Source: an uncultured Hyphomicrobiales bacterium (GTDB lineage: Bacteria > Pseudomonadota > Alphaproteobacteria > Rhizobiales > Kaistiaceae). Taken from it: a DNA stretch of 64,000 nucleotides. Numbering within the stretch: position 1 is the stretch's first letter; each line of letters opens with the position of its first letter. Both the position numbers and the translations under genes were made by a program. Below, in pieces: positions 48,900 to 52,439 of this stretch. The notes below the pieces were generated by a model. That model did not search any database and was not told the origin of the DNA. It saw only the letters and a list, made by a program, of their open reading frames with translations. Location: the NCBI GenBank assembly GCA_964483325.1, contig CAZAAW010000002.1, positions 88,226 through 152,225 of the forward strand, read 5' to 3'.

Positions 48900-50096
48900 A
48901 TGTTAAGCGAAGGAAAACAGCTCGCAACCGCTACGGCCGAAGAAGGCCGTAAGACCGGTGCCAATCGCAGGACCTTCCTGAAGGGTCTTGGCGGCGCCGC
49001 TGCCGGTGCGGTGGCTGTTGCCCAGGCCAGCAAGGCCATGGCCAACAACGGCTGGGGCTGGACGACCGATACGCCGGACAGCGCGCTGATGGTCGACATG
49101 TACCGCAAGATGCTGCGGTCGCGTGAGTGGGAAGACGCCATCAAGGAAGCTTTCCTGGCCGGCAATGACGGCCTCTACGGCGCGTTCCACATGTATATCG
49201 GCGAGGAAGCCGTTGCCGTTGGCGCCATGGCGGCGCTGAACGACGACGACTACATCGCCTCGACCCATCGTGGTCATGGTCACCTCATCGCCAAGGGCGG
49301 TGACCTGAACAAGATGTCGGCCGAGATGTTCTTCAAGTCGACGGGCTACAACAAGGGCTTCGGCGGCTCGATGCATCTGACGGATGTCAGCAAGGGCATC
49401 CTGGGCATGAACGGCATTCTTGGCCCGCAGTACCTGATCGCCGCGGGCGCTGCCTACGGTGCCAAGGTCCGCGGCACCAAGCAGGTCGCGGTTGCCTTCG
49501 GTGGCGACGGTTCGACCGGCCAGGGCTGGTACTACAACGGCCTGCGCAACGCCGCGAACTACAAGCTCCCGATGATCTACGTCATCGAAAACAACGGCTA
49601 CCAGATCTCGATCCCCTTCGAGAAGGTGTCGCCGATCAAGGACCTGGCCGACTACGCCGTCGGTCTGCATATCCCTAGTGAAGTCGTTGACGGCATGGAT
49701 GTTCTGGCCGTCTACAATGTGATGAAGCGCGCCGTCGAGCGGGCTCGTGCCGGTGAAGGCCCGACCCTGATCGAGGCCAAGACCTACCGCTTCATGGACC
49801 ACGCCGGTCTCGCCGGTGCCAAGCCGGGCGTCCTCGGCGCCTTCGGCCTGCCCTACCGCGCCGACGCGGAAGTCCGCGCCTGGATCGCCAAGGACCCGAT
49901 CCCGCGTCATCGCAACTTCCTGATCGCCAATGGCGACCTGACGGAAGAGCAGGCGACGCAGATCGAGAACGAGGTGAAGCAGGAAGTCGCCGACTCGCTC
50001 GAGTTCGCTCGTCAGAGCCCGTACTCGGCCGATGATGCGGCGCTGGAGCACGTCTACGCTTCGGGCAAGGTCGCGGCGAGCCAGTTCATCGCCTGA
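48900..50096 (+). CDS. TPP-dependent dehydrogenase E1 alpha subunit (AcoA/PdhA-like) with an N-terminal twin-arginine (Tat) signal peptide
   Basis: GAGGAGG lies 6-7 nt upstream of the ATG. The N-terminus contains NRRTFLKGLGGAAAGAVAVAQASKAMA. The core has STHRGHGHLIAKG, GGSMHL and the TPP motif GDG-x26-NN (GGDGSTGQ ... VIENNGY). Confidence 0.85.
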   Translation: MLSEGKQLATATAEEGRKTGANRRTFLKGLGGAAAGAVAVAQASKAMANNGWGWTTDTPDSALMVDMYRKMLRSREWEDAIKEAFLAGNDGLYGAFHMYIGEEAVAVGAMAALNDDDYIASTHRGHGHLIAKGGDLNKMSAEMFFKSTGYNKGFGGSMHLTDVSKGILGMNGILGPQYLIAAGAAYGAKVRGTKQVAVAFGGDGSTGQGWYYNGLRNAANYKLPMIYVIENNGYQISIPFEKVSPIKDLADYAVGLHIPSEVVDGMDVLAVYNVMKRAVERARAGEGPTLIEAKTYRFMDHAGLAGAKPGVLGAFGLPYRADAEVRAWIAKDPIPRHRNFLIANGDLTEEQATQIENEVKQEVADSLEFARQSPYSADDAALEHVYASGKVAASQFIA

Positions 50097-50141
50097 GCCA
50101 GAGCAACCAGATCACACAAGAATTAGGGAGCTATTAGGAAA

Positions 50142-51116
50142 ATGGCACCGAAACCCGGTAATTACGCCATTCTGGAAGCCCTGCAGCAGGAGTTCCGGAA
50201 CGATCCTCACCTGACGATGCTGTACGAGTACCAGCGTCCGACGGCCGTGTCGCCGACCGGCCAGGTGATCGACCTCTTCAAGGAGTTCGGCCCGGTTCGT
50301 ATCCCGGATTGGGGTCCGCTCGACGAAGAATGGTTCGTCGGCGGCGGCATGGGCATGGCCATGACGGGTGTGCGTTCCATCGCCCACCTGCCGTCCATGA
50401 CCACCCTGCGCACCTTCGAGCTGGTGTTCAACCAGATCGGCAAGCTCCGTCACATGACGGGCGGCCAGGCTTCCATGCCGATCACGCTGTGGATCGACGC
50501 GGCCGGCCGTGGCGCCGGCTCCGCCGGCCAGCACTCCGACGCCGGCCAGGAGGCGCAGTACGCTGCTCTTCCGGGCACGACCGTCGTCATCCCGTCCGAT
50601 CCGTATGACGCCAAGGGCCTGATGACGGCCGCTCTGCGTTATCCGGACCCGGTGATCTTCTTCCACTACGGCGCGATCAACAACGTTCAGGTTGACGTTC
50701 CGGACGGGGAAGTGCTCATCCCGATCGGCGAAGCTGCCGTCCGCCAGGAAGGCACCGACATCACGATCGTCGGCGTCGCCCCGGCCACGCTGGAGATCGC
50801 CAAGGCCCTCCCGGGCCTCAAGGACGCCGGCATCTCGGCGGAGTTCATCGACCTGCGGACGATCAAGCCGCTGCCGATGGAGCAGATCCTTGCCTCGGTC
50901 CGCAAGACCGGCAAGCTTCTGGCCGTCGACCATGGCCACGAGACCCTGGGTACCCCGGCCGAGATCATCGCCCGCGTGGCGATGGCTGTCCCGGGCGCCA
51001 AGCTGGGCCGCGTGACGTTCCCGGATGCGCCTCCGCCCGGTGCGCGCAACATGATCACCTGGATGACTCCGGACGCTCCGAAGATCGTCGAGGCTGCCAA
51101 GAAGCTCGTCGCCTAA
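50142..51116 (+). CDS. divergent E1 beta subunit (transketolase-like Pyr and C-terminal domains), no signal peptide
   Basis: 324 aa. AGQHSDAGQEAQYAALPGTTVVIPSDPYDAKGLM and DLRTIKPLPMEQI match the E1-beta pattern. AGGAAAA RBS. It starts 45 nt after the alpha stop. Confidence 0.8.
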   Translation: MAPKPGNYAILEALQQEFRNDPHLTMLYEYQRPTAVSPTGQVIDLFKEFGPVRIPDWGPLDEEWFVGGGMGMAMTGVRSIAHLPSMTTLRTFELVFNQIGKLRHMTGGQASMPITLWIDAAGRGAGSAGQHSDAGQEAQYAALPGTTVVIPSDPYDAKGLMTAALRYPDPVIFFHYGAINNVQVDVPDGEVLIPIGEAAVRQEGTDITIVGVAPATLEIAKALPGLKDAGISAEFIDLRTIKPLPMEQILASVRKTGKLLAVDHGHETLGTPAEIIARVAMAVPGAKLGRVTFPDAPPPGARNMITWMTPDAPKIVEAAKKLVA

Positions 51117-51132
51117 GCGACGGCATCATCAG

Positions 51133-51167
51133 GGGGAGGCGGGCCAAGGCCCGCCTCCCCTTTGTGT
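51133..51167 (+). terminator. strong intrinsic terminator/attenuator after the E1 beta gene
   Basis: Perfect 13-bp stem GGGGAGGCGGGCC / GGCCCGCCTCCCC followed by TTTGTGTCTC. Confidence 0.75.
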
Positions 51168-51189
51168 CTCTGGAGTTTCGGTACCCATT

Positions 51190-51465
51190 ATGGTTGAACA
51201 GGCTGCAGACGATAGCCTCCGTTGCGAAACATGCGGTGGGACTGCTCGTCCGACCGAAGTCCAGGTCACAATGTGGAATGGCGGACAATTGGTGCTGATT
51301 GAGTCCGTGCCCGCTATGGTATGCGAGAGCTGTGGGGAGCAGTTCTACGAGGAGAACGTGGCAACGGGCATTCGCAAACTCGCCGAGACCGGCTTTGCGG
51401 GCGCCAAGGCCACGCGCGAGATAACGGTTCCCGTGTTCCGTCTCGACAAGGGTCGGGACCAATAG
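51190..51465 (+). CDS. YgiT/MqsA-N-type zinc-ribbon protein (no HTH domain)
   Basis: 91 aa with two CxxC pairs (CETCGG ... CESCGE) spaced as in YgiT-type zinc fingers. Weak RBS. Confidence 0.6.
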   Translation: MVEQAADDSLRCETCGGTARPTEVQVTMWNGGQLVLIESVPAMVCESCGEQFYEENVATGIRKLAETGFAGAKATREITVPVFRLDKGRDQ

Positions 51466-51485
51466 CAAGAGAGGGCATACGGCTC

Positions 51486-51917
51486 ATGATCGGAAAACTC
51501 ATTGAAGCAACCAAGGTGAAGCGCACGCTGGCGGCGCTGGCTGCCGTTGCAGGCATTTTTGGCGCCATGACCGTCGCCGAGACGCCGGCGCTGGCGCAGG
51601 GCCTCGACATCGACAAGGTCTTCTGGTGCACCGAGGGCAATATCGGCGACCAGAGCGTCGATCAGTGCACGGCTTCGCGTGATCTCATTCTCAACAATTG
51701 CACGGCCTGCCACACGATCGTGCCGATCGTGAAGGCGCAGAAGGACGAGGCGGGCTGGAATGCCACCCTCCAGGTCCATCGCACGCGCGTGCCGGAAGTC
51801 TCGGACGCGGATTATGAGCAGCTCGGCAAGTTCCTGACCGCTCACTTCAATCCGCAGAATCCGGTGCCGGAACTGCCGCCGGAGCTCGAGGGTCTGGGCA
51901 ATAACCAGGCGTTCTAA
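51486..51917 (+). CDS. secreted monohaem c-type cytochrome (unclassified), paralogue 1
   Basis: Signal peptide (TLAALAAVAGIFGAMTVAETPALAQG), a single CTACH haem-c motif, and a conserved C-terminal AHFNPQNPVPELPPEL. Confidence 0.7.
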   Translation: MIGKLIEATKVKRTLAALAAVAGIFGAMTVAETPALAQGLDIDKVFWCTEGNIGDQSVDQCTASRDLILNNCTACHTIVPIVKAQKDEAGWNATLQVHRTRVPEVSDADYEQLGKFLTAHFNPQNPVPELPPELEGLGNNQAF

Positions 51918-52019
51918 GACAGAGGCGCGGCAGGGAGAGGCCGCGCCAGGTCTTGACGTCAGACTGGAGCCGTGCTCCGAAAGCCATTAGCCTATGATGG
52001 CTGCATGGGACGCCTGAAA

Positions 52020-52439
52020 ATGAGACGTTTGCATATTCTCTTCGCTTCTCTCCTGCTTGTCGCAGGGTTCGCCGTCGTCGGGGCATTTGTCGGCCAGCAG
52101 CCGGCTCGTGCGCAGGACGGCGTAGAAGGCCTCGACATGAACGAGATTTTCCGTTGCTTCCAGACCGATCCGGAAGGCGTGGCCAAGTGCGACGAAGCGC
52201 GCAGCCTTATCCTGGGCAATTGCGTGCTCTGCCACATGTTCGTGCCGATCGTTCTGCAGCAGTTCGACGCCGGCGGCTGGCAGAGCCTGATCGACCGGCA
52301 TCGGATCGGCAATCGCGTCGATGCGCTGAGCGACGAGCAGGTCAAGACCATCCAGGACTACCTGACGGCAAACTTCAATCCGGAGCATGAGCCGCCGGAG
52401 CTGCCGAAGGAGCTTCTCGAGAACTGGACCTCCTACTAA
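52020..52439 (+). CDS. secreted monohaem c-type cytochrome (unclassified), paralogue 2
   Basis: Signal peptide (MRRLHILFASLLLVAGFAVVGAFVGQQPARAQ), a CVLCH motif, and a C-terminal ANFNPEHEPPELPKEL. An alternative start is at 52005. Confidence 0.7.
   Translation: MRRLHILFASLLLVAGFAVVGAFVGQQPARAQDGVEGLDMNEIFRCFQTDPEGVAKCDEARSLILGNCVLCHMFVPIVLQQFDAGGWQSLIDRHRIGNRVDALSDEQVKTIQDYLTANFNPEHEPPELPKELLENWTSY

Follow-up and report, generated by a model that had tools for sequence, protein, structure and literature searches.

The 64,000-nucleotide stretch analysed here (contig C2, positions 88226–152225, of an uncultured Hyphomicrobiales bacterium; hereafter the window) encodes an α/β pair of the E1 component of 2-oxo acid dehydrogenases in which the thiamine pyrophosphate (TPP)-binding α subunit begins with a predicted twin-arginine translocation (Tat) signal. 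We favour, with a probability of roughly 0.55, the reading that this pair is an exported E1 that operates without E2 or E3 and feeds electrons to two c-type cytochromes encoded in the same gene cassette. The cassette comprises seven genes, encoding Tat-E1 α, E1 β, a YgiT-type zinc ribbon, cytochromes A and B, a membrane-bound O-acyltransferase (MBOAT), plus a DltD-like SGNH protein. A preliminary description of the window had proposed an exported, E2/E3-independent E1 with dedicated cytochromes, and this remains the best reading of the locus, whereas its oxidative chemistry and electron path are what we infer from the genes. The five open reading frames it listed are all present in the positions given in Table 1; its gene set was incomplete, since the same strand continues past position 52439 with the MBOAT and DltD-like genes.

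Export of a TPP-loaded α2β2 E1 through Tat is the best-supported step of this reading and, judged from the family's sequences, is very probable. The E1 α N-terminus has a long n-region followed by N22-R23-R24-T-F-L-K, a Gly/Ala-rich hydrophobic core, a c-region lysine and an A46-M-A48 cleavage site ahead of N49-N-G-W, in agreement with the twin-arginine signal first described, and the strong GAGGAGG Shine-Dalgarno sequence reported before the far-upstream ATG is in place. About 115 of the 120 closest homologues (59–99% identity, ~400 amino acids) keep both RR-x-F-L-K and the cleavage site, the remainder being truncated sequences. In 39-sequence alignments R23 and R24 are invariant and the preceding 20–45 residues vary freely; the homologues retain the RR signal and do not start at an internal methionine without it, a possibility the preliminary description had raised. 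Of 39 family N-termini, 28 are recognised by the Pfam model TAT_signal at E ≤ 0.01, the best at 8.5e-6. Proteins of the Pseudomonadota type carry AxA sites in both Tat-E1 α and the cytochromes. In an Acidobacteriota-type clade the RR signal ends in a lipobox cysteine that replaces AxA, and the adjacent cytochromes are mostly lipoproteins as well. A switch between signal peptidases I and II makes sense only after export, so the lipobox clade points to an exported protein, and the parallel switch in E1 α and the cytochromes argues that both reside on the same side of the membrane. TatC is encoded in the host genome. E1 β lacks a signal peptide, as noted before.

The enzyme itself retains the features of an E1. 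E1 α matches PF00676 (E1_dh) at E = 1e-70 and contains the TPP motif G201-G-D-G…N231-N232, whose residues are invariant across the family alignment, bearing out the ordinary E1 core described from the first reading; E1 β matches PF02779 (Transket_pyr) and PF02780 (Transketolase_C). Searches of the Protein Data Bank return matches at E = 2.6e-44 for α and 2e-49 for β. Residue-by-residue alignment to 1w85_A identifies conserved α His301 as the counterpart of Geobacillus stearothermophilus α His271, and alignment to 1w85_B, beginning at residue 9, reveals that the β counterparts of Glu59 and His128 are retained. After His301 the family has a conserved insertion of its own, ~8 residues long, in an active-site loop that in canonical E1 shapes the entrance for the lipoyl arm. 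The proteins fall below the NCBIfam equivalog cut-offs of TIGR03182 (280 bits against 393.85) and NF006667 (188 against 321). Public annotation of the homologues is generic, as pyruvate dehydrogenase (PDH) E1 α or acetoin:DCPIP oxidoreductase α, and includes no cultured, studied carrier that we could find.

Phylogenetic comparison places these proteins apart from other E1 α subunits. Profiles made from the cassette proteins were used to scan species-representative genomes; members of the family have scores above 430 bits, lengths of 390–450 amino acids and the twin arginines, and ordinary E1 α proteins score below 340 bits, are ~320 amino acids long and have no RR. A quick maximum-likelihood tree, whose groups were partly defined beforehand by profile score, splits 37 Tat-bearing from 39 signal-less E1 α sequences on a single branch with a support of 100 in the Shimodaira–Hasegawa-like approximate likelihood ratio test (SH-aLRT). 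The Tat-bearing sequences form three subclades: a Planctomycetota/Verrucomicrobiota type, a soluble Pseudomonadota type that includes the window protein, and a lipoprotein type that occurs in Acidobacteriota, Gemmatimonas, Pseudohongiella and a Comamonas metagenome-assembled genome.

Analysis of the host genome (3.12 Mb, 99% complete) identifies no E2 free to serve the Tat-E1 pair. The preliminary description had reported that E2 and E3 are absent from the 64 kb, and all E2- and E3-type matches in the genome indeed lie elsewhere. The E2 genes number only two (C2:13571 and C1:215428, both outside the window): the canonical PDH E1 pair of C1 adjoins one of them and sucA the other. There are three E3-type genes (C1:221919, C2:15811 and contig C28). 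A cognate E2/E3 encoded elsewhere had been considered as a possible partner; both E2 genes adjoin canonical E1, leaving no spare. In the homologous neighbourhoods examined, no E2 gene stands beside a Tat-E1 pair.

Cytochromes A and B belong to a family that is largely private to this cassette. The CxxCH motif is invariant in 34 cytochrome sequences from several phyla, which carry signal peptides or lipoboxes, confirming the earlier identification of two Sec-signal monohaem cytochromes. A histidine ~22 residues past CxxCH is nearly invariant and is replaced by methionine in one host-genome paralogue, a swap expected of the sixth haem ligand. Neither cytochrome matches any Pfam or NCBIfam model above its cut-off. 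The family profile matches a dihaem cytochrome c (2fwt, E = 0.002) and SorB (E = 0.04), and also touches the haem domain of quinohaemoprotein amine dehydrogenase. Comparison of an AlphaFold2 (AF2) model of cytochrome B (predicted local distance difference test score (pLDDT) 87.9) with known structures using VIA-align returns top rows that are nearly all c-type cytochromes, led by SorB (2blf_B, Z 7.5), cytochrome cz (Z 6.0) and a dihaem cytochrome c (Z 5.3), with Z values that are modest and at most 7.5; Foldseek with the same model gives no match at E ≤ 0.001. A search of 1.84 billion cluster representatives gives 437 members of the family at E ≤ 1e-10. Searches for longer proteins found no cytochrome of the family fused to another domain, which is weak evidence, and the long profile matches among the cluster representatives are either multihaem proteins or sequences in which no further domain can be recognised. 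The host genome contains cytochrome c maturation genes and six haem-copper oxidase genes.

Several further features of the cytochromes are apparent. All B-type proteins from Pseudomonadota to Acidobacteriota end in W-T-x-Y with the tyrosine last (window 52428–52436), and A-type proteins have a variable C-terminus, or G-G-C-T-P-F in Acidobacteriota. Some distant relatives (P0168, P0179 and P0194) are multihaem proteins with 3–6 tandem copies of the domain and match PF09098 in Pfam, the model for the haem-binding domain of quinohaemoprotein amine dehydrogenase; one multihaem relative is fused to an ethylbenzene-dehydrogenase-type domain.

The cassette recurs as a unit across distant bacteria. 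The same arrangement is found in dozens of unrelated contigs, more than chance would give. Five long metagenome contigs share the set including a last protein of ~325 amino acids, with the order kept in four of the five and rearranged in L008; outside the cassette their neighbourhoods have no common theme, and a divergent AraC-type regulator lies on the upstream side of E1 α in three of them (L010, L012 and L014). Among species-representative genomes, counting only loci with enough downstream sequence, the zinc ribbon accompanies the E1 pair in 4/5 loci of the soluble Pseudomonadota type, 16/20 of the lipoprotein type and 6/9 of the Planctomycetota/Verrucomicrobiota type; the corresponding fractions are 4/5, 17/20 and 0/9 for the cytochromes, and 3/4, 5/17 and 0/8 for the MBOAT. 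A reverse test is stronger than these E1-seeded counts. In a metagenome scan seeded on cytochrome B alone with a narrow alignment, the E1 pair lies upstream in 25 of the 26 loci that extend 3 kb or more in that direction, the zinc ribbon is present in 46 of 48 informative loci, and the MBOAT follows in 25 of 29 loci with at least 2.5 kb downstream. This linkage, together with the lack of any strong match to the cytochrome family outside the host genome among 300 genomes sampled from the host's class, argues that the cytochromes are dedicated to the cassette. Gene content, motifs, conservation and linkage are direct observations, and the co-occurrence that the preliminary description had proposed to look for extends across Pseudomonadota, Acidobacteriota and Gemmatimonadota. 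The partnership it had drawn between E1 and the cytochromes stands in that the cytochrome family occurs almost only beside such E1 pairs, and fails for the Planctomycetota/Verrucomicrobiota type, where 0/9 loci have the cytochromes.

The zinc ribbon, rather than the cytochromes, is the most widely kept partner of the E1 pair. The CxxC–CxxC open reading frame previously called a zinc ribbon passes the YgiT-finger model TIGR03831 (41.3 bits, cut-off 20.2), with C45 and C48 invariant and C12 and C15 nearly so, and its nearest Atlas clusters are stand-alone MqsA-family fingers. An MqsA-type antitoxin was considered and rejected: the protein is a finger alone without a helix-turn-helix (HTH) domain or MqsR toxin, its neighbours are E1 β and a cytochrome, and it scores 16.7 bits against a cut-off of 61.8 for TIGR03830. 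In L010, L012 and L014 its reading frame overlaps the cytochrome A gene by 4 nt. Since it is the commonest companion of the E1 pair and lacks a signal peptide, the simplest reading is that it most likely acts in the cytoplasm as an assembly or Tat-proofreading factor for E1, the alternative being a small co-exported subunit. A complex prediction of α, β and the zinc ribbon gave a score of 0.00 and points neither way. Searches for longer proteins found no fusion of the zinc ribbon to other domains, again weak evidence. In Planctomycetota, the zinc-ribbon gene after E1 β encodes a longer product of 197–260 amino acids (L054:4980–5573, L058:12281–13063, L049:12181–12849). At least the L054 protein consists of two YgiT-type fingers in tandem, a form found in several Planctomycetota that would fit one finger per α subunit of the heterotetramer.

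The last two genes of the cassette encode what we predict to be a complete MBOAT–SGNH O-acyltransferase, with no evident acceptor. The MBOAT matches PF03062 at 104.7 bits; DltB is its best NCBIfam match, at a sub-threshold 145 bits. Six aligned cassette MBOATs all keep His303 and His343, and all 15 of 15 cassette MBOATs checked end in FVYMQF. The motif FXYXXF is an acyl-shuttle motif that is auto-acylated from acyl-CoA in PatA-type MBOATs (PMC12148441). A DltB that needs DltX was considered and is ruled out by the protein's own FXYXXF tail. The AF2 model of the SGNH protein (pLDDT 88.8) has an N-terminal membrane helix, its top Foldseek matches are the DltD structures 3bma, 6o93, 7dxm and 6pfx (E = 3e-6 to 1e-4), and Ser78-His79, Gly107/109, Asn144, Asp307 and His308 are invariant. 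The conserved cassette neighbourhoods contain no genes for peptidoglycan, alginate, cellulose or teichoic acid. Both window proteins contain segments of their own. The MBOAT has a 104-residue hydrophobic insertion (residues 373–476, window 53737–54048) that is missing from five other aligned cassette MBOATs, making it 601 amino acids long against ~478 in the others aligned, and the DltD-like protein has a Pro/Ala-rich tail of ~40 residues (55450–55561) that is missing in homologues and modelled with low confidence.

The host genome carries three Tat-E1 α/β pairs, the window pair and two others. Contig C14 (10985–13288) contains a duplicate of window positions 48865–51167, comprising the E1 pair and the hairpin that follows it, between unrelated flanks. 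Its coding sequence is 100% identical in nucleotides over 48960–51119; the two copies differ by three synonymous substitutions within the first 60 coding bases, by a 1-nt deletion at 48882 in the leader upstream and by changes past the stop codon. These features suggest a recent duplication or gene conversion; an assembly artefact is ruled out by the differing flanks and the differing first 60 coding bases. The gene 3′ of the C14 pair encodes a 213-residue secreted, low-complexity protein (P0154) of no known family. The third pair, on C27 (1255–3908, L016), is 67% and 66% identical to the window pair and has its own zinc ribbon (51%) and no cytochromes. A second cassette-type cytochrome pair stands alone on C1 (124896–125933, L017) beside a valyl-tRNA synthetase gene.

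Between E1 β and the zinc ribbon lies a hairpin with a perfect 14-bp stem (ΔG −40.7 kcal/mol, z = −4.3), confirming a feature that the preliminary description had treated as a caveat on the linkage of E1 to the downstream genes. Hairpins of unrelated sequence recur at the same position in L010, L012, L014 and the C27 paralogue, so the hairpin is no argument against linkage. It also forms the 3′ end of the segment duplicated on C14. Transcripts of the locus are present in assembled RNA contigs from four libraries in three studies, in which the C14 duplicate adds to the depth of E1. E1-pair contigs have a depth of 175–750, and 18 in the fourth library, and high-depth E1 contigs end at 51090–51121 in three studies. 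The zinc-ribbon and cytochrome genes have a depth of 5–20, with one 1366-nt contig covering all three, and the MBOAT and SGNH genes have little or no cover, from which contigs cannot show a lack of transcription. Because the data are assembled contigs and E1 is duplicated, the depth step hints only weakly at a hairpin that attenuates read-through or makes the E1 message more stable.

Drawing on these observations, we propose that E1 α and β assemble with TPP in the cytoplasm and that the folded enzyme would be exported via Tat on the α signal, with β carried along, to be active in the periplasm without E2 or E3. There it would most likely decarboxylate a 2-oxo acid oxidatively, or cleave an α-hydroxyketone or diketone, and the two electrons of hydroxyalkyl-TPP would pass to the two monohaem cytochromes of the cassette, directly or via a mediator, and on to the respiratory chain. 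The MBOAT and DltD-like protein would form an acyl-CoA-type O-acyltransferase with an extracytoplasmic acceptor, somehow connected with the E1 reaction, and the hairpin after β would keep E1 transcripts above those of the accessory genes. That cytochrome c is the electron acceptor of E1 appears probable from gene linkage: the two are exclusively associated, the cassette encodes no further redox enzyme, and both share a localisation.

Several observations weigh against an exported E1 that feeds the cassette cytochromes. Window E1 α scores 17.8–18.8 bits against Pfam TAT_signal, under the 22.7-bit cut-off. The nine Planctomycetota/Verrucomicrobiota-type loci without cytochromes indicate that cytochromes are not universal partners of Tat-E1, and the cassette can exist without them; the cytochrome profile is also unmatched in five genomes of this type that have Tat-E1, where genome completeness is not given and absence is not implied. 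A locus of the opposite kind, L146 (8938–13000), encodes the zinc ribbon, cytochromes A and B, MBOAT and SGNH protein with no E1 in the 8.9 kb upstream, a stretch that contains no Ns and holds an ABC-F ATPase gene instead. The parts of the cassette are modular within the host genome as well, as the E1 pair alone on C14, E1 with a zinc ribbon on C27 and the cytochrome pair alone on C1 demonstrate. The conserved MBOAT–SGNH pair is unexplained by a model in which cytochromes are the acceptor. Finally, TPP in known E1 structures lies deep in a funnel built for the lipoyl-lysine arm, so that it is not obvious that electrons could pass straight to a protein-bound haem unless a mediator or a rearranged loop intervenes.

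This modularity would be accommodated if E1 were instead a non-oxidative periplasmic TPP enzyme (decarboxylase, lyase or carboligase) that passed no electrons from TPP to haem, and if the cytochromes, zinc ribbon, MBOAT and SGNH protein formed a separate module acting on the same envelope or periplasmic compound. The strong recurrent hairpin between β and the downstream genes fits such a division, as do the sharp (if weak) change in RNA contig depth at that point, the downstream module without E1 in L146, and E1 without the module on C14 and in Planctomycetota/Verrucomicrobiota-type loci. We nonetheless consider it unlikely: the cassette has no other redox enzyme for the two cytochromes to serve, the cytochrome family adjoins the Tat-E1 pair in nearly every informative locus, E1 retains the histidines used in the oxidative half-reaction, and the localisation signals of E1 and the cytochromes change together. 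The hypothesis that we regard as quite unlikely, and which is the sole model to assign every gene a role, treats the whole cassette as an envelope-acylation pathway in which periplasmic E1, with the cytochromes as oxidant, would convert a 2-oxo acid into acyl-TPP and pass the acyl group to the DltD-like serine, the MBOAT tyrosine or both, and from there to an envelope polymer or across the membrane. The MBOAT lies 3′ of the cytochromes in most informative loci, MBOAT and DltD-like genes occur together in 5/5 long metagenome contexts, and the catalytic motifs are kept, FVYMQF in the MBOAT and Ser-His with Asp-His in the DltD-like protein. To our knowledge, acyl transfer from acyl-TPP to an SGNH serine has no precedent, and the MBOAT is adjacent in only the 5/17 lipoprotein-type loci noted above and in no Planctomycetota/Verrucomicrobiota-type locus. 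The MBOAT is also built like an ordinary PatA-type enzyme, C-terminal motif included; enzymes of that type use acyl-CoA and draw their acyl group from the cytoplasm (PMC12148441), so no donor in the periplasm is required.

A related reading, which we hold to be highly doubtful, is that the cassette is a periplasmic stand-in for a whole 2-oxo acid dehydrogenase complex. The cytochromes would replace E3 and NAD as electron sink, and the acyl group of acyl-TPP would be captured by the DltD-like serine and MBOAT tyrosine, allowing envelope acylation without cytoplasmic acyl-CoA or delivery of an activated acyl group across the membrane; a CxxC pair of the zinc ribbon, if co-exported, could take the place of the lipoyl disulfide. 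At the other extreme, the N-terminal extension might have no function in export, and the pair would be a spare cytoplasmic E1 that uses the housekeeping E2 and E3. The sub-threshold TAT_signal score, the retention of residues needed for lipoyl acylation and the presence of E2 and E3 genes elsewhere in the genome are compatible with this. Against it, the twin arginines, hydrophobic core and signal-peptidase site are kept in different phyla whereas the n-region before them varies freely, a whole clade uses a lipobox that is sensible only after export, the neighbours are secreted cytochromes, the family is a clade apart from signal-less E1 α proteins, and no examined member adjoins an E2 gene, which together make a cytoplasmic spare E1 very improbable. 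An exported E1 coupled to the cassette cytochromes remains the reading we prefer.

The cassette lies between housekeeping genes, with typA upstream and a methyltransferase gene and an OmpA-like gene downstream (Table 1). G+C content is 62–64% over the cassette region, with 62.5–63.6% across 48000–54000, 65–69% in neighbouring bins and ~69% in the remaining window. This drop, together with the clustering of Pseudohongiella and Comamonas E1 sequences with the Acidobacteriota type on the tree, suggests that the cassette was transferred horizontally. Non-coding DNA of about 650 nt (48242–48899) separates typA from E1 α, and a search of this interval for a sigma-70-like promoter gave no match. Control by a TPP riboswitch was considered and rejected, as an Rfam scan upstream of α and at the hairpin found no riboswitch or known RNA, the single match being far below its gathering score. 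Outside the conserved cassette, the minus strand at 57459–60239 encodes a 926-residue secreted protein that combines repeats rich in Pro and Ala with one CxxCH motif (C-A-R-C-H) and a DUF4384 domain at its C-terminus.

Table 1. Features of the Tat-E1 cassette, in window coordinates (aa, amino acids)
Feature	Position	Strand	Basis or remark
Shine-Dalgarno GAGGAGG	48889–48895	+	directly 5′ of the upstream ATG of E1 α; read from sequence
Predicted Tat signal peptide of E1 α, residues 1–48	48900–49043	+	
E1 α, TPP-binding, 398 aa	48900–50096	+	PF00676
E1 β, without signal peptide, 324 aa	50142–51116	+	PF02779 + PF02780; candidate for co-export with α
GC-rich 14-bp hairpin followed by UUUGUGUCU	51133–51167	+	probable partial terminator or 3′ stabiliser
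YgiT-type CxxC…CxxC zinc ribbon, without signal peptide, 91 aa	51190–51465	+	TIGR03831
Monohaem c-type cytochrome A, Sec signal peptide, CTACH, 143 aa	51486–51917	+	
Monohaem c-type cytochrome B, Sec signal, CVLCH, 139 aa	51972–52439, probable start 52020	+	
MBOAT acyltransferase, C-terminal F-V-Y-M-Q-F, 601 aa	52621–54426	+	PF03062
Putative membrane-anchored DltD-like SGNH acyltransferase, 374 aa	54437–55561	+	AF2 model, Foldseek

If the preferred reading is true, TPP chemistry would join the periplasmic respiratory dehydrogenases, cofactor-loaded hetero-oligomeric Tat cargo would gain a new class, and bacteria could draw energy from extracellular 2-oxo acids and related carbonyls without uptake. 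Bacteria that carry the family belong to at least five phyla and come from soil, fresh water, the sea and wastewater, and the window stretch itself is found in wastewater, sludge, soil and rhizosphere metagenomes; the high RNA contig depth in wastewater and sludge libraries suggests that the family may matter for carbon turnover there. The MBOAT–SGNH link could reveal a new acceptor or donor for this acyltransferase machinery. All parts of the cassette are small, soluble or members of well-behaved families, which makes the hypothesis directly testable at the bench.

Our literature search turned up no description of an exported E1 or of any component of this cassette, and there is a slim chance that the complete cassette functions in an undescribed way. 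The E1 components of 2-oxo acid dehydrogenases are textbook cytoplasmic or mitochondrial enzymes that depend on lipoyl-E2. Like the heterotetrameric E1 of the pyruvate, branched-chain 2-oxo acid and acetoin complexes (1W85; AcoAB), the window E1 has two subunits with the same domains, the TPP motif and the Glu and His residues of the active site. It differs in its Tat signal, its lack of an E2/E3 partner, its ~8-residue insertion, its separate clade, its linkage to cytochromes, a zinc ribbon and an MBOAT–SGNH pair, and its scores below the NCBIfam equivalog cut-offs. A precedent for TPP-dependent electron delivery to the respiratory chain is PoxB, the pyruvate:quinone oxidoreductase formerly named pyruvate dehydrogenase (cytochrome), EC 1.2.2.2, which acts without lipoamide or coenzyme A. 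PoxB is a homotetramer containing flavin adenine dinucleotide, sits on the cytoplasmic face and belongs to a different TPP-enzyme family, whereas the window E1 has no flavin domain and would act on the opposite side of the membrane.

The accessory proteins likewise resemble known machinery in new company. As in PatA/PatB, AlgI/AlgJ and DltB/DltX/DltD, an MBOAT with FXYXXF is paired with a membrane-anchored DltD-like SGNH protein whose catalytic Ser and His are kept; here there is no DltA, DltC or DltX and there are no nearby polysaccharide synthesis genes, and the pair is linked instead to an exported E1 and cytochromes. The zinc ribbon shares the N-terminal finger of YgiT/MqsA, without its HTH domain or toxin partner. 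Some Tat substrates have assembly factors encoded in their operons, such as TorD, NapD and the iron-binding, rubredoxin-like FdhE of formate dehydrogenases; the zinc ribbon is similarly small, signal-less and encoded with a Tat substrate, a likeness of gene context from which a chaperone role may be proposed. We know of no TPP enzyme that is exported or that uses cytochrome c. Close parallels are SorAB (2BLF) and quinohaemoprotein amine dehydrogenase, which follow the logic proposed here of a folded, cofactor-loaded enzyme that is exported with a small private cytochrome c encoded alongside. SorB is the haem subunit of a periplasmic, Tat-exported dehydrogenase and is also the best structural match of cytochrome B; the cofactor in the window enzyme would be TPP in place of molybdopterin or a quinone.

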